This document shows positions 4,331 to 51,909 of a stretch of DNA of 64,000 bases, piece by piece; position 1 is the stretch's first letter, and the number at the start of each line of letters is the position of its first letter. The position numbers were made by a program, and so were the translations under genes. A model generated the notes under the pieces. That model saw nothing but the letters and a program-made list of their open reading frames with translations, did not search any database and was not told where the DNA came from. The stretch comes from an uncultured Chitinophagales bacterium (lineage in GTDB: Bacteria > Bacteroidota > Bacteroidia > Chitinophagales > JADIYW01), in NCBI GenBank assembly GCA_964472755.1, contig CAYYMF010000001.1:2381-66380 (forward strand), given 5' to 3'.

Positions 4331-5260
4331 CTAATCTTCTAAATTACTCTCTTTGATTACATAGTTTGGTCTGTCTTTTACATTGTCCAAAATTCTTCCA
4401 ATATATTCGCCAATAATTCCTAAACAAATTAATTGAACACCACCCAAAAACAAGACACTTAGCATAATTGATGTCCAACCTTGAACGGTATTGTTGTTCC
4501 AATATTTTTGATAAACAGAATATATGATAACTGCAAAAGCCGTCAATGAAATTAGAAATCCTGCATAAGTAGCCAAGTGCAAAGGACGGTTAGAAAATGA
4601 AACAATTCCATCATAAGCAAACTTAAACATTTGAGCATAGGAATAATTAGTTTTGCCACTACGTCTGCCTTTTCTTTCAAAAGGAACACCAATCTGCTTA
4701 AATCCAGCCCAAGCAATTTGACCACGAATGAATTTATTTTGCTCTGGCATACTACAAATGACGTCTTTTACTTTTTTTGAAATCATTCGATAATCGCCAG
4801 TATCTTCTGGAATATAGACATCAGATAATTTATTGATGAAGCGATAAAAAAGTTTAGCAGAAGTAAGTTTTAGCCACGTTTCATCAGAGCGATAGGTTCT
4901 TTGTGCAAAAACAACTTCATATCCTTCTATAAATTTTTCATATAACTTTTCAATCAATTGTGGAGGATCTTGCAAATCAGCATCTATAATAACAATCGCA
5001 TCGCCACTTGATTTTTCTAAACCCGCAAAAACAGCATTTTGATGTCCAAAATTTTTGCTAAAATGAATATACTTTACATTTTTATCTTGTTCTGCTAGAA
5101 TCTGAATGTTTTTATAAGATAAATCCGTGCTGCCATCATCAATATATAGAAATTCATAACTTGAACCAATTTTTTGGATAGTAGTCAATAGTTCTTGATA
5201 CAAAGGAAAAACATTTCCTTCCTCGTTATGCACTGGTATGACAACAGAAATTTTCAACAA
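4331..5260 (-). CDS. GT2 polyprenyl-phosphate glycosyltransferase (GtrB/ArnC/DPM1-like)
   Basis: GT-A motifs VVIPVHNEE, DDGSTD and DADLQDP (DxD), plus two C-terminal TM helices. This is the architecture of enzymes that make polyprenyl-P-sugars. Confidence 0.85.
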   Translation of the reverse strand: MLKISVVIPVHNEEGNVFPLYQELLTTIQKIGSSYEFLYIDDGSTDLSYKNIQILAEQDKNVKYIHFSKNFGHQNAVFAGLEKSSGDAIVIIDADLQDPPQLIEKLYEKFIEGYEVVFAQRTYRSDETWLKLTSAKLFYRFINKLSDVYIPEDTGDYRMISKKVKDVICSMPEQNKFIRGQIAWAGFKQIGVPFERKGRRSGKTNYSYAQMFKFAYDGIVSFSNRPLHLATYAGFLISLTAFAVIIYSVYQKYWNNNTVQGWTSIMLSVLFLGGVQLICLGIIGEYIGRILDNVKDRPNYVIKESNLED

Positions 5261-44261: not shown

Positions 44262-45620
44262 ATGAACGGAATTAATAAAGATAGACAAAATTTAATTTTT
44301 GTATTTGCTTTTGTATTAGCATTTGTTGTTAATTATTTTTCGTGGAATAAGCCTTTTTTTTGGGATAGCTTATTAACATCTTCTGTAACCCAATTCTATT
44401 TTGAACATGGGTTTGGAAACTTAATTTTACCCAATGCTTTAGATGCTGATCACCCTCCTTTTTTTTATGTTTATGTTGTTGTTTTTTATAAATTATTTGG
44501 TTTAAACTTGTTTGCAGCACACTTATCTATGCTTTTACCTAGTTTATTGGGCTTATTTGCATTCGTAAAAATTTTACAACACTTAAATTTCTCCTATAAA
44601 TTACAAACGTTTACCATTTTAGGCTATTTTTCTATTCCTGCAATACTTACACAACATACTTTAGTAAGTTATGATTTGATGCTTTCTTCGCTTTATTTAT
44701 TTGGTATCTATTGTATTTTATTTGAGCGAAAAATTTTATTGAGTATAATTGCTATTGGCATCTGTAGTGTTGCTGCTCGTGGATTATTCTTTATGCTTAG
44801 TTTGTTTTTTATTTATTATCTATACAATAGAAATCTAAAAAAATCTATACTAATTTTTTTACCAGCATTATTATTATTTGGAATATGGATGATTTATCAT
44901 ACTTTATTTACACAGCATTTTATTACTTTAGAAAATAATTGGAGTGAACATCGAAAGTTGGTTAATTTAAGGGGATTAACTATGAATCTTATTGCTTTAG
45001 CAAGAGTTCTTTTTGACTTTGGGATTGTTTTACTTTTTATTATTCAGATGTTCCAATTTTATATTACAAAGAAAATAAGTCGGCTTCAATTATTTTGGAT
45101 TATTCCTTTTATAGTTTTTGCTGGAGGTTTTGTTTTTTTATCTAACCCAATTGGACATCGATATTTTTTGGTTGTGTATATCTTTCTTCTAATTTCTTCT
45201 ATTTATTTTTTAAATAAGCAATATAAAAAGTGGCTTTGGATTCTATGTTTGTTGCCTTTGGGTCATTTTCAAATTTATGGCAATCGTATTTCAAATGGTT
45301 GGGATTGTACTTTAGAATATTTGTCATTTATTTCCCTAAAAAATGATTTTGATAAATATATTAAATCAGCGAACATTGATAATTTAAATTTAGGTACTGT
45401 TTTTCCTATGAATTTATCTGAGCGTCAGTATTATTTATCAGGAGATAGTCGTTCAATGGTTAATATACATGGAAAAAATATAGATGATTATTCATTTATT
45501 TTATATTCAAATATTGGGAATGATTTTTCAAATAATCAATTAGACCGAATGCAACAATATCAGATTGTGAAAAGTGAAAAACGTGGCAGAGTTACGATGA
45601 TACTCTATTATACAAAGTAA
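44262..45620 (+). CDS. GT-C fold glycosyltransferase, ArnT/PMT_2 (GT39/GT83)-like
   Basis: About 11 TM segments. Acidic residues follow TM1 (..FFWDSLL..), and the ..DADHPPFFYVYVVVFYKLFG motif resembles the HPPL-YY motif of this family. Confidence 0.6.
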   Translation: MNGINKDRQNLIFVFAFVLAFVVNYFSWNKPFFWDSLLTSSVTQFYFEHGFGNLILPNALDADHPPFFYVYVVVFYKLFGLNLFAAHLSMLLPSLLGLFAFVKILQHLNFSYKLQTFTILGYFSIPAILTQHTLVSYDLMLSSLYLFGIYCILFERKILLSIIAIGICSVAARGLFFMLSLFFIYYLYNRNLKKSILIFLPALLLFGIWMIYHTLFTQHFITLENNWSEHRKLVNLRGLTMNLIALARVLFDFGIVLLFIIQMFQFYITKKISRLQLFWIIPFIVFAGGFVFLSNPIGHRYFLVVYIFLLISSIYFLNKQYKKWLWILCLLPLGHFQIYGNRISNGWDCTLEYLSFISLKNDFDKYIKSANIDNLNLGTVFPMNLSERQYYLSGDSRSMVNIHGKNIDDYSFILYSNIGNDFSNNQLDRMQQYQIVKSEKRGRVTMILYYTK

Positions 45621-45682
45621 TTTATCATCGGAATATTCTAAATTTAACTCATAAAAAAACAGTATCTTAGTTTCCATTTTTG

Positions 45683-47287
45683 ATGGAAACCATAAAGCCG
45701 AAATATAATAAACAAGATATTATTAATGTAGGTCTGATACTGTTGCTTGGGTTTTTTATTGCTCAGCAGCTTCAAGATTATATGGATGTACTGCTTTGGG
45801 ACGAAGCAATATATTTAGACCGAGGATTTTTATTATGGAAGATAATTCCAAATACTTGGGGTCCAATTTATTCAGTTTGGTATAAATTTTTGTCCTATAT
45901 CGAACAAAATAAAATAGCTTTATATTATTTGAATTACAAAGTACTTTATCTTTTAAGTTCAATTTTAGCATATTTATTTATGGTGGCTTTAAGAACTCCA
46001 AAAGTTATGACGTTGTTTTTTGTATGTATGTGGTTGATTCACCCATACAATTTACCATCTTGGCCAAAAATATCTCATTTTGTTATTTGTATTATATTAT
46101 TTGCTGCCCTATTTATACAATATTTAAAAAGTACCATCAATCAAATTGTTGTTTTTTCTATCGCTTTTCTAATTTGTGGTTTTGCTCGTCCTGAATTGTA
46201 TTTATCGTTTATTTTTTCTGTTTTATTGTTATTTATTTTAATTTTTATCAATAGAAAGAATATTAACCAATCAAATATTTTAAGCATTTGTATATGGTTG
46301 TTGTTTGTAGGTGTTACGTATAAACTATATCGAACGCCACTTACCAATGGTGATGCCCAGAGAGGCATGGGTGTTTTTATACAACATTTTGCACTTAATT
46401 ATTCTATTTGGAACAAACAAGATGTTTTGTGGTGGTTCGATTTTCAAGATGCTGTGATGCATTGTTTTAAGCCACCATATACACTTAAAAATTTTGTAGA
46501 AAATCCTTATTTATGGAAACACTTTTCATTTAATATTCAACTATTATTATCAAAATCATTTAGTTTAATATTCAACCTAATTTTTCCATTTCATTTTATC
46601 AGTAAAAAAATATTTTTTGTACTTAGTTCTCTGCTGTCACTTTATCTTCTATATAAAAATAAGTGTAAAATTAAGTACTTCTTTCAACTGATAAAGGAAC
46701 AGTTTCTTTTGTTTAGTTTGTTGTTATTATCTGTTTTACCATCTATTGCATCATCAATTTATGCACATCCTAGAACACATTATTTAGTCCTATTTTTTCC
46801 TTTTATCTTTTTTATACTCAGTGCATTTTTTCCAAAGGATAAGGAGTCAAATATTTTACATAGCCTACTCATCTTTTTAGTTTTTATATTATTTATGCCA
46901 AAAGCAAAAGACTTTCAGTATTTTGATTTATATGGTACTGATAAAAATATGATGACAAAAAAATCCATTAGCTTTATTGAAGATAAATATCAAAATCAGC
47001 CAACTACAATTTTGGATATTGATGGATTGATGCCATCTTTGATGAATAGTAATTTTAAATCAAGCAATATTCGACCCTTAATTAAAGAAGATTCTGTATT
47101 AATTTCAGCTATTATACTTAATGAACAACCTGATATTATATATATTACACCAACTATGATGAAACTAAAGAAAAACAAAACAGATAGCTTGTTTCAACAA
47201 ATGATAGCAGCACCAGAACGATTTAATTATCATAAACAATCTATACCAACTTTAGAAGATGTTTATCTTTTGGAGAAAACGAAGTAA
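45683..47287 (+). CDS. Polytopic membrane protein, putative GT-C-like glycosyltransferase, paralog A
   Basis: At least 10 TM segments, LLWDEAIYLDRG directly after TM1, and a soluble C-terminal domain of about 130 aa. Clearly paralogous to the next gene. An ATG at 45683 follows a TTG at 45680. Confidence 0.45.
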   Translation: METIKPKYNKQDIINVGLILLLGFFIAQQLQDYMDVLLWDEAIYLDRGFLLWKIIPNTWGPIYSVWYKFLSYIEQNKIALYYLNYKVLYLLSSILAYLFMVALRTPKVMTLFFVCMWLIHPYNLPSWPKISHFVICIILFAALFIQYLKSTINQIVVFSIAFLICGFARPELYLSFIFSVLLLFILIFINRKNINQSNILSICIWLLFVGVTYKLYRTPLTNGDAQRGMGVFIQHFALNYSIWNKQDVLWWFDFQDAVMHCFKPPYTLKNFVENPYLWKHFSFNIQLLLSKSFSLIFNLIFPFHFISKKIFFVLSSLLSLYLLYKNKCKIKYFFQLIKEQFLLFSLLLLSVLPSIASSIYAHPRTHYLVLFFPFIFFILSAFFPKDKESNILHSLLIFLVFILFMPKAKDFQYFDLYGTDKNMMTKKSISFIEDKYQNQPTTILDIDGLMPSLMNSNFKSSNIRPLIKEDSVLISAIILNEQPDIIYITPTMMKLKKNKTDSLFQQMIAAPERFNYHKQSIPTLEDVYLLEKTK

Positions 47288-47342
47288 ATGAATAAATATT
47301 AAAAACCATTAATAGTTATAGACTTTAAAAACAACTTACCTT

Positions 47343-48968
47343 GTGAAGGATTTTATGCAAGAGAAATTTAAAAAAGAACATTTTATAATCAATGATTTTA
47401 TAGCTATTTGCCTATTAATAATAATGGGTATTTTTGTTGTGCATAATTTAGAAAACAATATGGATGTTTTGCTTTGGGATGAAGCAAGATATTTAGATAG
47501 AAGTTTTTGGCTTTGGAAAGCATTGCCAAAAACTTGGGGACCAATCTATTCTGTTTGGTATAAAATCCTGTCTTATATAGAAAGCAATAGGGTCGCTTTG
47601 TATTATCTGAATTACAAAATGCTCTTCATTGCAAGTACTATTTTGGCTTATGGATTTATGCGAGTTTATAAAGCTTCTTTATTTGTAGCTTTATTCTTTA
47701 GTTCTATTTGGATGGTGCATAACTATAATTTGCCAGCATGGCCAAAAATTTCTCATTTTTGTATTTGTATAATTTTAGCTACTGGAATTGTTGCTGCATT
47801 TATAAAAAACACGATTAATAAAACGATTGTTTTTGCAATTGCTTTTTTAGTTTGTGGGTACGCACGGCCAGAATTATACTTGTCATTTATTTTTATTCTT
47901 GTCCTACTTTTTGTATTAATCATTAAAAATATCAGAACCTTTAATAAAAGTAATGTTCTTTATTTTGCTATGCTTATTTTTTTGATGCTGTTAAGTTATA
48001 AAGCCTATCGAACGCCTTTAAATAATGAAGATGCTTCAAGAGGGATAGGTGTTTTTTTGCAGCATTATGCTTACAATTTTTATACTTGGACAAAACAAGA
48101 TGTGATATGGTGGTTTGATGTACAAGAAGCTTTGGATAAAAGTTTTAAAGCACCGTATCAACTTAATGCAATCATATTGAGTGTAGATAGTCCATTTTGG
48201 AAACATATTTTTTATAATACAAAATTATTTTTTAGCCATTTGGTATTTATCATTTCAAACTTAATTTCTCCTTTCTATTATATTGACAAAATTCCATTTT
48301 TTATAGGTACTAGCTTGGTAAGTTTGTATATTTTTTGGCATTTTAAACAAAGTTTGTATTTAATTATTAAAAAGGTTAAAACAAATTGGTTGGTATTTCT
48401 AGTTCTATTTTTAGGAATTATTCCTTCGATAGCATCAAGTATTTATGCTCATCCAAGAACACACTATTTAGTCTTGTTAATGCCTTTGATTTTCCTTTTT
48501 TTAAGTACAGTTTTTAAGGAAAATATATATTCTTCATGGAAGGTAATTGTAGCATTTGCTTTGTTTTTTATTTTTACTTCTCCAAAATCTAAAGATTTCA
48601 AATATTTTGATTTGTTTGGTACAGATAAAAATATGATGAATAAAAAAGCTATTCTTTTTTTAGAAAATAAATATAAAACAGATTCTGTTAATGTTTTTGA
48701 TATTGACGGACAACTGAACACTTTAATGACACAAAATTTTAGATCCTATAATATTGGTGCATTTATTTCAAAACCTGAATATCTTTTATCTCAATTTATC
48801 CAAATAGAACAACCTAATGTAATTTATGTTACACCAACGATGTTTAAATTGAAAAGGTCAGAAAAAGATACTGTTTTTCAACAAATGATTCTTCATCCTG
48901 AAAGTTTTGGATACCAAAAAAATAGCATTCCTGGATTGACAGATACCTATTTTCTAATCAGCAAGTAG
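47343..48968 (+). CDS. Polytopic membrane protein, putative GT-C-like glycosyltransferase, paralog B
   Basis: Same architecture, with LLWDEARYLDRS after TM1. Start is GTG 47343 or ATG 47355. Confidence 0.45.
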   Translation: MKDFMQEKFKKEHFIINDFIAICLLIIMGIFVVHNLENNMDVLLWDEARYLDRSFWLWKALPKTWGPIYSVWYKILSYIESNRVALYYLNYKMLFIASTILAYGFMRVYKASLFVALFFSSIWMVHNYNLPAWPKISHFCICIILATGIVAAFIKNTINKTIVFAIAFLVCGYARPELYLSFIFILVLLFVLIIKNIRTFNKSNVLYFAMLIFLMLLSYKAYRTPLNNEDASRGIGVFLQHYAYNFYTWTKQDVIWWFDVQEALDKSFKAPYQLNAIILSVDSPFWKHIFYNTKLFFSHLVFIISNLISPFYYIDKIPFFIGTSLVSLYIFWHFKQSLYLIIKKVKTNWLVFLVLFLGIIPSIASSIYAHPRTHYLVLLMPLIFLFLSTVFKENIYSSWKVIVAFALFFIFTSPKSKDFKYFDLFGTDKNMMNKKAILFLENKYKTDSVNVFDIDGQLNTLMTQNFRSYNIGAFISKPEYLLSQFIQIEQPNVIYVTPTMFKLKRSEKDTVFQQMILHPESFGYQKNSIPGLTDTYFLISK

Positions 48969-49049
48969 AAGTACATTTATACATAAATGTGTATCTTAGA
49001 AAATTCTGTTAAATACCAATATTCTGAAAATTTCTACAATAAAAACTAC

Positions 49050-49057
49050 TACCTTTG
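49050..49057 (+). promoter_or_regulatory. Candidate internal -7 box TACCTTTG upstream of the Wzy-like gene
   Basis: TAnnTTTG, 28 nt before the TTG at 49086. An in-frame stop at 49080-49082 prevents a longer ORF. Confidence 0.35.
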
Positions 49058-49085
49058 GCATTTAGTCGAATAAATTGCATAACGT

Positions 49086-50417
49086 TTGGGAACAGGAAAA
49101 ACATTTTTAGATACGGTGCTTTATACTCGTGACCAAGAAGGTTATGAGAAAAAAGTAGTTTTTCTTTTTATCTATTCTTTATTTTGTAACAGTAATACTT
49201 TTTCTCAGTTTTCAGCTGTGAGTAGTATTGGAGGAATTTTTGTAGTAATTCTTATTCCTCTAATGTTATTATTGACTGGAGTCTATTGGTATGTAGCTAT
49301 ATTTGTATATAAGCGTTTATCATTGATTGATTTGTTTGTACTTATTTGGTGTTTAACGCCAATTTATAACGCTATTGCCTCACATCTTACCGTTGATGTT
49401 AAAATTTTGAAAGCCTTAATCAATGCAATGCCAAGATACCTAGTTGTATCTGCAAGTCTGATGTATTTTTTAATCAAGAGTGAGAAAATTACAATAAAAC
49501 AATATTGCCTCGCTGGTGTTTTGGTGGGTTGGTTTGATTTGATTTTGTATATTATTTTAAATATTTATTTAGACCCACAGTCTTACAAAGCAGATGAAAG
49601 TTTGGTGGGTTATAATCCATCAAAAGGTGGATATATTTGGCGTTTTGGTAGTGTCTATATCATATTTGCCTTGTCCTATCATTTTGTCGTATTTTTAGTA
49701 AGGAATAAGTTTTTGCATTTAATAGCCACCATGATTTTCTTGGCTTATATGTTTTTTTTGGATAAACAACGTACAGAAATTTTATCTGTTTTAATACCAA
49801 TTATTATTTATATGTTTTTCAAGTTGAGATGGTATGAAGTCATCAACCGAATGACACAGTTGGTTTTGTTTTCAGGTCTTATTCTGGGGATTATTTATTA
49901 TATCAATCCTATGCTGCTACAATTTACAGCAGATATGTTTATTAATTTCTTTAAGTTTATGATGGGTATGGAAACTGGGGAAGCTTCTGCCGATTCTAGA
50001 ATTATACAATTTACCAATGCTTACGATTTCTTTATGCGTCACCCTACTTTTATGTTTTGGGGGATTGGTTATGTGAAGCCTGAAATTCTATATCTTGAAA
50101 TGGGGAAATTCATTTATTCAGATACTGGAATTGTTGGTATTTTAGTGGCACACGGCATTATCGGAACGATTTTACAAACCTCTATGTTTTTATATCCAAT
50201 TTATGTTTTTTTTAAAGTGAAGCATTATCGAAATGATATTTATTATAATATGGGCATGTTGGGTTGTGTAGTTGGCTTTACCAGTGGTATGTTTAGTGGA
50301 GGTTATGCCTTAAATGCATTTGGTATTTTCTATTTCTTTGCTTTTGTGGAATATTTTAGAGTAAAAGAAAAGATTTATTGGAAACATAAACGCTTGGAAC
50401 GTGAAAAAGCTAATTAA
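49086..50417 (+). CDS. O-antigen ligase / polymerase (Wzy_C) family membrane protein
   Basis: About 11 TM segments. ..DKQRTEILSVLIPIIIYMF.. and the periplasmic loop ..SADSRIIQFTNAYDFFMRHPTFMFWGIGYV.. follow the R...W....P.fG.G.G pattern of this family. Non-ATG start, uncertain. Confidence 0.6.
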   Translation: MGTGKTFLDTVLYTRDQEGYEKKVVFLFIYSLFCNSNTFSQFSAVSSIGGIFVVILIPLMLLLTGVYWYVAIFVYKRLSLIDLFVLIWCLTPIYNAIASHLTVDVKILKALINAMPRYLVVSASLMYFLIKSEKITIKQYCLAGVLVGWFDLILYIILNIYLDPQSYKADESLVGYNPSKGGYIWRFGSVYIIFALSYHFVVFLVRNKFLHLIATMIFLAYMFFLDKQRTEILSVLIPIIIYMFFKLRWYEVINRMTQLVLFSGLILGIIYYINPMLLQFTADMFINFFKFMMGMETGEASADSRIIQFTNAYDFFMRHPTFMFWGIGYVKPEILYLEMGKFIYSDTGIVGILVAHGIIGTILQTSMFLYPIYVFFKVKHYRNDIYYNMGMLGCVVGFTSGMFSGGYALNAFGIFYFFAFVEYFRVKEKIYWKHKRLEREKAN

Positions 50418-51909
50418 ATATTTTTTCATAATATTGGTCATTTTTGCGATTCTTAAAAATTGTACATCACCAAAAAAGGAAAAAAAGCAAATTGAAGAAG
50501 TTGTAACCAATTTTTCTTCTATTGAAATTAATTTAAAATTGGATTATTCAAAAGAGCAGCAATTACATGTGGATAATTTATTTGGCTTAAATACCGGTTT
50601 TATTTGGACAAAAGAAATTGATAAATCAAATGCTTTTGTTGAATTATTAAAAGAAAGTGGCAATGTTGTTTTGAGATTTCCAGGTGGAGGCGTTGCCAAT
50701 AATTATTATCCTGATGAAGTTGGCTATGGTTATAATCCAAAGAAACGACCTGTTGGTTTTAAAAGCATCATGCTCTATAATCAAACAAAAGATAGAAAAT
50801 ATAATATCATTGAGAATTTTGTCAGTTTATGTAAACAAACTAATGCTAAAGTAATTTATTGTGTTAATGTTTTAGATGGCAATGTTGAAAAAATGCAAAT
50901 CGTTATTGACCGATTGAAAAAGGAAAATATTGAGCTAATCGGTGTAGAATTAGGCAATGAACTAAATATGGGTAATTATCGTCATGTTTTTCCAAATGGA
51001 CAAGTATATTTAGATACTATTCAAAAATACATTCAAGCAATAAGAAAAAACTATCCTGATTTGAAAATTGGATTGGTTGCTGAAACGTTAGATGTCAATA
51101 ATTTAAAGGACAAGAGAAGTCAATTTATGCATGAATGGAATAAAAAATTTTCTACCACAGACTTTGATGCCTATATCGTTCATTCTTATTTTCCAATTGA
51201 TGATAAACAAAAGAATTTCGATGAAATTTTCCTAAAATCTGTTGATATTAGTAATCCATATTACACAAACTATACAACAAATTTATTGGAATATTTTAAC
51301 ACCATCGATAAAGAGCAAAAGAAAAAAATTTGGATTACAGAATGGGGTATTTTTAATTTGTATGGAGGTAATACATTTTTGCAAGCTGCATCTACGGGAC
51401 AGTTTCTAAATAATGTAATACAATATGATTCTTTAAATCGTATTGATATTGCATGTTTACACGATATTGGAGCAATGATTGGGCAATCTAATCCTAAACT
51501 TCAATATACTTATAAAAATGAAAAATATGCGGTTGGTGCGATATACTTTCCTTATAAGTTTTTATCAGATATTATTGTAAAAAATAAATCCAAAATAGTA
51601 GCACATCAAATAGATAAAAAAGTTCCCTCTAATTTTGTAATACAAACATTTTATAGTACAGAAAATAAAAAAACATACATTTATTTTATTAATTCAGCTC
51701 CAACAACTGTTCATTTAGCTATTCCAACTTCCAAATTAGAAAAGCAAATTGAATTTATTGTAGCAGACAAGTTGTATGCTCATACTGGATTTGCAGCATT
51801 TTTGAAAGATTATCCTTCAAAAAACTCCTTAATTCAATACAAAAAGGAAAATAGCGTTACTAATCAAATTAAAATTGCTCCTTATTCGCTTGGTGTTATC
51901 AGTTTTTAG
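50401..51909 (+). CDS. Lipoprotein with clan GH-A (beta/alpha)8 glycoside hydrolase signatures
   Basis: GTG start. Signal plus Cys (..AILKNC). GVELGNELN is a candidate acid/base site and KIWITEWG a candidate nucleophile. It overlaps the previous gene by 17 nt. Confidence 0.6.
   Translation: MKKLIKYFFIILVIFAILKNCTSPKKEKKQIEEVVTNFSSIEINLKLDYSKEQQLHVDNLFGLNTGFIWTKEIDKSNAFVELLKESGNVVLRFPGGGVANNYYPDEVGYGYNPKKRPVGFKSIMLYNQTKDRKYNIIENFVSLCKQTNAKVIYCVNVLDGNVEKMQIVIDRLKKENIELIGVELGNELNMGNYRHVFPNGQVYLDTIQKYIQAIRKNYPDLKIGLVAETLDVNNLKDKRSQFMHEWNKKFSTTDFDAYIVHSYFPIDDKQKNFDEIFLKSVDISNPYYTNYTTNLLEYFNTIDKEQKKKIWITEWGIFNLYGGNTFLQAASTGQFLNNVIQYDSLNRIDIACLHDIGAMIGQSNPKLQYTYKNEKYAVGAIYFPYKFLSDIIVKNKSKIVAHQIDKKVPSNFVIQTFYSTENKKTYIYFINSAPTTVHLAIPTSKLEKQIEFIVADKLYAHTGFAAFLKDYPSKNSLIQYKKENSVTNQIKIAPYSLGVISF

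Follow-up and report, generated by a model that had tools for sequence, protein, structure and literature searches.

GT-C enzymes assemble cell-envelope glycans and glycoproteins outside the cytoplasm. One structural class of these glycosyltransferases (GTs), GT-C_A, includes the families GT39, GT83, GT53, GT57 and GT66 (Table 1 of PMC10920833), and new sequence families continue to be added singly: the GT136 ribofuranosyltransferase, for instance, sets a precedent for a GT-C family founded, in 2024, from a sequence orphan (PMC11127046). Here we examine a tandem pair of genes, copy A and copy B, encoding polytopic membrane proteins of an unnamed family in a 64,000-nucleotide (nt) stretch of DNA (the window) from an uncultured Chitinophagales bacterium (contig CAYYMF010000001.1, positions 2,381-66,380, forward strand). 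Our analysis favours a model, to which we give a probability of about 0.65, where A and B represent a new, GT-C_A-like family of glycosyltransferases and would take a sugar from polyprenyl phosphate at the periplasmic face of the membrane, as parts of a module for the assembly or remodelling of an extracytoplasmic glycan. The paralogy of the two proteins, the purifying selection on both, their fold class, the orientation of their N-terminal half, their conserved synteny and their taxonomic pattern are established. The pair is placed as follows.

45683-47287, forward strand: copy A, 534 amino acids (aa) from ATG 45683; the open reading frame (ORF) reaches TTG 45680, which gives 535 aa.
47343-48968, forward strand: copy B, 541 aa from GTG.

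Residues of copy A are numbered from TTG 45680 (535 aa) throughout; ATG 45683 is the start used in its 91%-identical ortholog P0001. BLASTP aligns A and B end to end with 274 identities in 539 positions (51%; 69% positives, E = 0, 9 gap positions), a likeness that, judged by alignment score, lies far beyond chance. A first-pass annotation of this DNA had matched the two proteins by eye along their whole length, and rightly so, since the alignment covers the full proteins and all eight of its motif blocks are present. Its description of them as tandem paralogs was correct as to the tandem arrangement but too narrow, as the genome holds six copies. The pair is also kept in L007, a Chitinophagales metagenome-assembled genome (MAG), with amino-acid identities of 91% for A and 86% for B. 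Against these orthologs, the ratio of nonsynonymous to synonymous substitution rates (dN/dS; NG86) is 0.088 for copy A and 0.146 for copy B. Such low values indicate purifying selection on both copies, which the annotation had supposed to be under selection. When A is compared directly with B, dN is 0.40 and dS 1.48, the latter saturated, for a ratio of 0.27. The A and B clades come out as well-supported sisters in a maximum-likelihood tree of 57 members, with orthologs of each in at least three species; the duplication is therefore an old one for the genus, and A and B have each been retained.

The fold of the two proteins was predicted with AlphaFold2 (AF2). The model of copy A reaches a predicted local distance difference test score (pLDDT) of 90 and a predicted TM-score (pTM) of 0.91 from an alignment of 25 sequences, and that of copy B 92.4 and 0.93, respectively, from 78 mostly different sequences; as the alignments overlap and sample one family, the two models are not fully independent. 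When copy A was searched against the PDB with Foldseek, 11 of the 12 top matches had a GT-C fold, the remaining one being PepT2. The best was DPY19 (7zli_A; E 0.017, probability 1.0, query TM-score (TMq) 0.44), followed by STT3A and AglB at ranks 2 and 3, then PIG-U, Pmt1/2, ALG3 and Pmt4, with AftB at rank 17 and AftD at rank 42. For copy B the GT-C fold occupies all of the top 19 places (17 enzymes plus PIG-U). Its best match is STT3B (6s7t_A; E 1.2e-4, TMq 0.48), and further ones include yeast and mammalian STT3, DPY19, Pmt4, Pmt1/2, AftB, ALG3, PIG-U and AftA, with PimE at rank 34. Across both models the GT-C matches show a TMq of 0.29-0.49, mostly at probabilities of 0.8-1.0; matches to transporters (MFS, MATE, VMAT, GLUT) show a TMq of 0.09-0.13 at probabilities of at most 0.1. 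The Foldseek matches belong to the GT-C_A class, and the agreement between predicted and known structures is consistent but moderate. The annotation had guessed at a GT-C identity from topology and an acidic loop; at the level of the fold, the two models and their Foldseek matches support that guess.

In sequence databases the family has no name. A, B and the four other copies of the genome match nothing in Pfam or NCBIfam, even at E <= 1, and 78 divergent members compared with Pfam gave single chance-level matches only, none of them a family assignment (among them DUF6541, DUF2142 and DUF6056, each matched once, at E 0.002-0.006). A Wzy_C_2 match of one paralog in the same genome, at E 0.026, is also at chance level. 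In particular, PMT (PF02366) and PMT_2 (PF13231) are unmatched by the six copies (E <= 1) and by the 78 members (E <= 0.01), and the same A, B and 78 members lack a match to the STT3 profile of GT66. Sequence searches of the PDB with family profiles built from 25 and from 145 members returned nothing meaningful, GT66 entries included. Among 5.8 billion proteins, a word-indexed search identified 23 clusters; none carries a Pfam domain, and those with a name are called 'hypothetical protein'. An exhaustive phmmer search, run on 1.84 billion representatives, recovered 770 clusters at E <= 1e-3, of which 505 reach E <= 1e-10; most are full-length and of about 540 aa. The family size of about 770 is a count of clusters at 50% identity. 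Literature searches yielded no characterised member and no newly founded GT-C family that fits, and the view that these proteins form an uncharacterised family, voiced at first pass, holds on all these counts. An identity of A and B as Wzy_C-type O-antigen ligases was also considered and rejected: PF04932 is unmatched, and the ligase WaaL (7tpg_B) reaches a Foldseek probability of 0.04 with the model of copy A.

The elements of the two proteins to which the following refers are these.

45785-45826, forward strand: acidic loop motif of copy A, residues 36-49, DVLLWDEAIYLDRG, at the start of the first extracytoplasmic loop after the first transmembrane helix (TM1).
47463-47504, forward strand: acidic loop motif of copy B, residues 41-54, DVLLWDEARYLDRS, the counterpart of the motif in copy A.
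46187-46195, forward strand: R170-P171-E172 of copy A, a near-invariant turn between TM5 and TM6, on the predicted outer face.
46769-46783, forward strand: P364-R365-T-H367-Y368 of copy A, near-invariant, between two late transmembrane (TM) helices.
46937-47284, forward strand: C-terminal alpha/beta domain of copy A, residues ~420-535 (~115 residues), with the near-invariant D502.

In the AF2 model of copy A, TM1 (residues 11-28) is followed by a loop (29-77) with two short helices (41-51 and 62-72), by six more hydrophobic helices up to residue 217, and by a long loop (218-275) with three short helices. Helix 276-301 is amphipathic, and four late hydrophobic helices (310-326, 342-361, 366-381 and 392-405) precede the C-terminal domain. 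Family-wide charge counts in 145 sequences give the N-terminus a net charge of +1.7 and the first long loop (EL1) one of -3.7; charge is positive in the short loops 104-107, 147-151 and 191-196, and loop 327-341 carries a net +2.5. The contrast between N-terminus and EL1 indicates an N-terminus inside and a loop with the WDEA motif outside, so that the periplasmic position proposed for this loop in the annotation is also the predicted one. Given the weak hydrophobicity of helix 276-301 and, by the positive-inside rule, the positive loop 327-341, we favour a model with 11 TM helices, in which the PRxHY motif and the C-terminal domain lie outside, over a count of 12. A periplasmic C-terminal domain is thus favoured but not proven.

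Conservation follows this layout. In the 145 sequences, which average 23% identity, some 30 residues are conserved at 90% or more: D36, D41, E42, Y45, G49, P62, Y64, W67, Y68, L71, L81, N85 and P129 in the first half; R170, P171, E172, P220, R228 (invariant), A232, F233, Q235, H236 and F263 in the middle; and H281, N285, P364, R365, H367, Y368, P407 and D502 towards the end. Those up to N285 fall in predicted outer loops or at outer helix ends, whereas PRxHY (364-368), P407 and D502 reach the outer face in the 11-TM model only and lie inside by the 12-helix count. The conserved polar residues are kept in all six copies of the genome, and none of these therefore looks like a dead paralog. The D-x4-D-E-x2-Y loop motif is proposed to be a catalytic or donor-binding acidic motif; the acidic pair just after TM1, together with the basic and histidine residues of the outer face, looks like a GT-C active site. 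Such outer-face conservation has been reported for GT-C families (PMC10920833).

What we infer from these features is catalytic activity, the use of a lipid-linked donor, the kind of acceptor and the side on which the C-terminal domain lies. In the mechanism that we propose, the N-terminus would be cytoplasmic, and TM1 would lead into a periplasmic loop of about 50 residues with two short helices and the residues D36-x4-D41-E42-x2-Y45. This loop would join N124/W128-P-K/S132-H133, R170-P-E, R228/Q235-H236, H281/N285 and P364-R-x-H-Y on the outer face, and the combined residues would form a site at the boundary between membrane and periplasm that binds a polyprenyl-phosphate-linked sugar. An acidic residue in that first loop would serve as base for the transfer of the sugar to an acceptor on the periplasmic side, a glycan or, less likely, a protein. 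By analogy with the Emb/Aft paralogs, A and B most likely would make different linkages or use different acceptors; alternatively, they may act as a heterodimer. A bolder version of the model, which we hold to be rather doubtful, would see a new family at the level of CAZy within GT-C_A. Its lineage-specific expansion in all 23 genomes of an uncultured genus of activated sludge, with 3-8 catalytically intact paralogs per genome, would serve to build a complex glycan whose assembly takes place wholly on the periplasmic face, comparable to the mycobacterial arabinan that Emb/Aft enzymes make. A and B would be an obligate heterodimer, like Pmt1-Pmt2, and belong to a module that combines GT-C, Wzy_C-like and GH-A proteins (clan GH-A of the glycoside hydrolases, GHs).

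That module is suggested by the neighbouring genes.

44262-45620, forward strand: PMT_2-like protein, 452 aa, polytopic, first gene of the apparent operon.
49086-50417, forward strand: Wzy_C-like protein, 443 aa, polytopic, of the O-antigen ligase/polymerase superfamily.
50401-51909, forward strand: GH-A-like protein, 502 aa, a predicted lipoprotein with an invariant Cys21, overlapping the preceding gene by 17 nt.

With A and B these genes make up an apparent operon (44262-51909), the gaps being 59, 55 and 117 nt besides the one 17-nt overlap. No terminator-like site lies in any of its gaps; the three sites seen are all intragenic and no more numerous than in shuffled sequence. The same five genes occur in the same order in L007, against which dN/dS (NG86) is 0.155 for the 452-aa gene, 0.040 for the 443-aa gene and 0.21 for the GH-like gene. 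The 452-aa protein has no Pfam match itself; one homolog is named GT39 by NCBI and 2 of 37 homologs weakly match PF13231, which makes it, by homology, a candidate for a distant PMT_2/GT39-like GT-C. Of the homologs of the 443-aa protein, 7 in 25 match PF04932 (best E 2.6e-9). The 502-aa protein matches PF11790 at E 2.6e-6 and has a clan GH-A-like catalytic core with invariant GNE and TEW motifs; among PDB entries, its profile comes closest to GH51 alpha-L-arabinofuranosidases (E 6.5e-6, over the N-terminal part alone), a similarity that may hint at a pentofuranose-containing glycan. Genes resembling galE and rfbA, as judged from their translations only, converge on the cluster. In our model, the five-gene cluster (PMT_2-like, A, B, Wzy_C-like, GH-A lipoprotein) would build or remodel an extracytoplasmic surface glycan.

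The arrangement recurs elsewhere. A Wzy_C-like gene follows a family gene in nine loci, the window included, and a GH gene does so in eight; both follow a family gene in two further genomes of the genus. Six other Chitinophagales loci have a divergent pair of family paralogs, then the Wzy_C-like and GH genes, with sulfotransferase and GT4 genes next in line. The last two (PF00685 and PF13692, respectively) lie directly after the module at L009:12527-14679 and at the same positions in L012, L014 and L016-L019; the sulfotransferase hints at a sulfated glycan in those Chitinophagales, and both genes are absent from the cluster of the window. In the Nitrospirota loci L020-L025 and L037 (Ca. Magnetominusculus among them) the family gene stands between a PMT_2 GT-C (PF13231), directly upstream, and a conserved ~614-aa membrane protein without a Pfam match; an H+-pyrophosphatase and a GGDEF protein are encoded upstream.

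As to the donor, one gene of the window deserves mention.

4331-5260, reverse strand: GT2 protein, 309 aa, with two C-terminal TM helices, a candidate polyprenyl-phosphate-sugar synthase.

This protein matches the PgfS (E 9e-86) and ArnC (E 5e-48) models end to end, with neither score reaching the cut-off of its model. It is one of three GtrB/ArnC-type GT2 proteins of the genome that carry a C-terminal pair of TM helices, the others being encoded one each on contigs C15 and C87. A supply of lipid-linked sugar donors in the genome is therefore plausible, and the GT2 at 4331-5260 is a possible source for the A/B locus. The neighbouring genes examined include no recognisable DPPR-synthase (UbiA-type) or MATE flippase gene.

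Beyond the tandem pair, the genome carries single copies on contigs C21, C14, C16 and C56. All 23 genomes of the genus have the family, with 3-8 copies each, tandem doublets and triplets being common and a few copies being broken by stops. In other families of the order it was found in none of 16, and in a sample of the phylum in 4 of 143 genera. Elsewhere, members occur in Nitrospirota (Ca. Magnetominusculus), Chloroflexota, Ignavibacteriota, Sumerlaeota, Paceibacterota and UASB270, nearly all of them in MAGs or other assemblies of uncultured organisms. The family is thus patchy, horizontally spread and strongly expanded in one uncultured Chitinophagales genus.

Several copies of the family have companions or features of their own. 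Three in other genomes of the genus, with several in-frame stops, resemble pseudogenes (G016:C1:1264599-1266207, G011:C5:108617-110223 and G007:C2:444563-446159); together with copy numbers of 3-8 these suggest birth-and-death turnover. At C16:11050-14266 (L005) and C56:3328-6523 (L006) the family copy is followed, with a short overlap, by the gene of a polytopic partner of 512-522 aa. The two partners are 54% identical, their first loop begins DD(S/A)(F/Y)ICFRYGYN, and neither has a Pfam or PDB sequence match; they look like a second orphan GT-C-like family paired with that of A and B. In other genomes of the genus, tandem doublets and triplets of the C21 type (L042:5635-13033 in G022, L044:7713-13563 in G006, L046:8050-15531 in G007 and L047:8139-15519 in G019) invariably have genes for two ~405-aa polytopic proteins before them. 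The corresponding locus in the genome studied here is C21:4335-7605, where the 408-aa homolog at C21:4335-5561 has no Pfam match. These arrays and the ~405-aa proteins are a second conserved module around the family. Beside the copy on contig C14 lies the gene of a secreted 565-aa protein (C14:1015-2712, reverse strand), the sequence of which is incomplete owing to masked bases (X). A supposed 1185-aa fusion in genome G214 was rejected, as it consists of two abutting ORFs of the same frame parted by a stop.

Several of our results weigh against a glycosyltransferase identity as proposed above. Searches of Pfam and NCBIfam, PDB profile searches and hhalign found no sequence-level homology to any GT-C family; in hhalign, the PMT_2 proteins adjoining the Nitrospirota members give a probability of 0.1%, and the PMT_2-like family of the upstream neighbour one of 3%, with an alignment collinear across TM1-TM6. 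As these profile-profile comparisons with PMT_2-type alignments are not significant, the GT-C assignment holds at the fold level only. The structural matches have a best E of 1.2e-4, TM-scores of 0.44-0.49 (<0.5) and root-mean-square deviations (RMSDs) of 12-16 Å over full-length alignments. On a plain count the membrane helices number 12, and the PRxHY motif would then be cytoplasmic, as would the C-terminal domain. Of the six copies in the genome, four lie outside recognisable glycan loci, and no GtrA-type flippase is found anywhere in the genome. Weak E-values, large RMSDs and the want of supporting sequence homology, together with AF2 models that share overlapping alignments of one family, could also mean that the likeness to GT-C is a generic artefact of helix bundles and the family a transporter or other membrane protein. 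This we consider highly improbable, given the distance in TMq and probability between the GT-C and the transporter matches, the hallmark GT-C layout (a TM1 with its N-terminus inside, an outer loop that is long, acidic and holds two helices, a further long outer loop following TM7, and a soluble domain at the C-terminus) and a glycan-related gene context in three phyla. A transporter identity, considered on its own, was rejected on the Foldseek scores.

The fold may be right and the chemistry different. A and B could be en-bloc transferases like STT3/PglB or WaaL, moving a preassembled oligosaccharide from undecaprenyl-pyrophosphate to a protein or lipid acceptor. The STT3 subunits at the head of the list for copy B (6s7t at the E-value given above; 8age, 6ezn and 8agb), the ranks of STT3A and AglB for copy A, a C-terminal soluble domain as in STT3 and PglB, and a Wzy_C-like neighbour, which suits a lipid-PP-oligosaccharide pathway, all agree with this. 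Yet no STT3 or other Pfam match is found, and the C-terminal domain has just ~115 residues, with no WWDYG-type motif and D502 as its sole near-invariant residue. DPY19, PMT and AftB, which use lipid-P-monosaccharide donors, score nearly as well, and 3-8 paralogs per genome, often in tandem, are more like linkage-specific monosaccharide transferases (Emb/Aft, Gtr); en-bloc transfer thus seems unlikely. It is less probable still, and in our view quite unlikely, that the proteins keep a GT-C fold without being enzymes, as lipid- or glycan-binding or scaffold subunits comparable to PIG-U in the GPI transamidase. PIG-U is indeed among the matches (7w72_U and 7wld_U at ranks 4-5 for A; 7wld_U and 8imx_U at ranks 17-18 for B), and family genes always adjoin genes of other polytopic proteins. 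Catalytic GT-Cs, however, exceed PIG-U in probability and TM-score, and near-invariant acidic, basic and histidine residues gathered on one membrane face are typical of an active site, their polar members being kept in all six paralogs. Glycosyltransferases with a polyprenyl-phosphate-sugar donor remain our preferred reading of A and B.

Among known systems, PMT and ArnT (GT39/GT83) share with A and B a cytoplasmic N-terminus, a TM1 followed by a long outer loop, and a second long outer loop after TM7. PMT has 11 TM helices, as in the preferred model of A and B, and Pmt1/2 and Pmt4 are among the Foldseek matches of both models; paralog pairs occur in both, Pmt1-Pmt2 acting as a heterodimer. 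The Asp-Glu pair of the first loop may correspond to the 'DE' motif of PMT. Genes of PMT_2 type adjoin family genes, distantly related in the window and clearly assigned to PF13231 in the Nitrospirota loci. Unlike PMT, the family has no Pfam PMT/PMT_2 match in 78 members, no significant profile-profile similarity and no MIR domain; its own marks are RPE, R..QH, H...N, PRxHY and the C-terminal alpha/beta domain of ~115 residues. STT3, PglB and AglB (GT66) likewise combine a membrane domain with a C-terminal soluble one, and they supply the best structural match of copy B, whereas A and B are shorter (~540 aa against 650-870 aa), carry the long outer loop after TM7 and not after TM9, and lack an STT3 Pfam match and a conserved WWDYG-type motif. 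The C-mannosyltransferase DPY19 (GT98) shares the fold, standing first for copy A and within the top 10 for copy B, yet it is eukaryotic and only 9-11% identical in the structural alignment.

The mycobacterial Emb/Aft arabinofuranosyltransferases differ from A and B in that no sequence similarity links them and A and B have no domain of the carbohydrate-binding module (CBM) type. In genomic organisation they offer a parallel: each genome has several GT-C paralogs, some in tandem, that draw on polyprenyl-P-pentofuranose donors and each form a different linkage of a polymer in the periplasm. The Foldseek matches of A and B include AftB, AftA and AftD, and the conserved neighbour of A and B is weakly like a GH51 arabinofuranosidase. 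An orphan family left unnamed by annotation pipelines comes ready-defined, with ~770 clusters, its set of motifs, confident models of two members, partners that are conserved and a clear taxonomic pattern. It points to an unexplored periplasmic glycan pathway in abundant uncultured wastewater Chitinophagales, in magnetotactic Nitrospirota, in Chloroflexota, Ignavibacteriota and others. Overall, set beside these known systems, it brings no new mechanism or principle; it is a new sequence family within a known enzyme class, with a striking genus-specific expansion.

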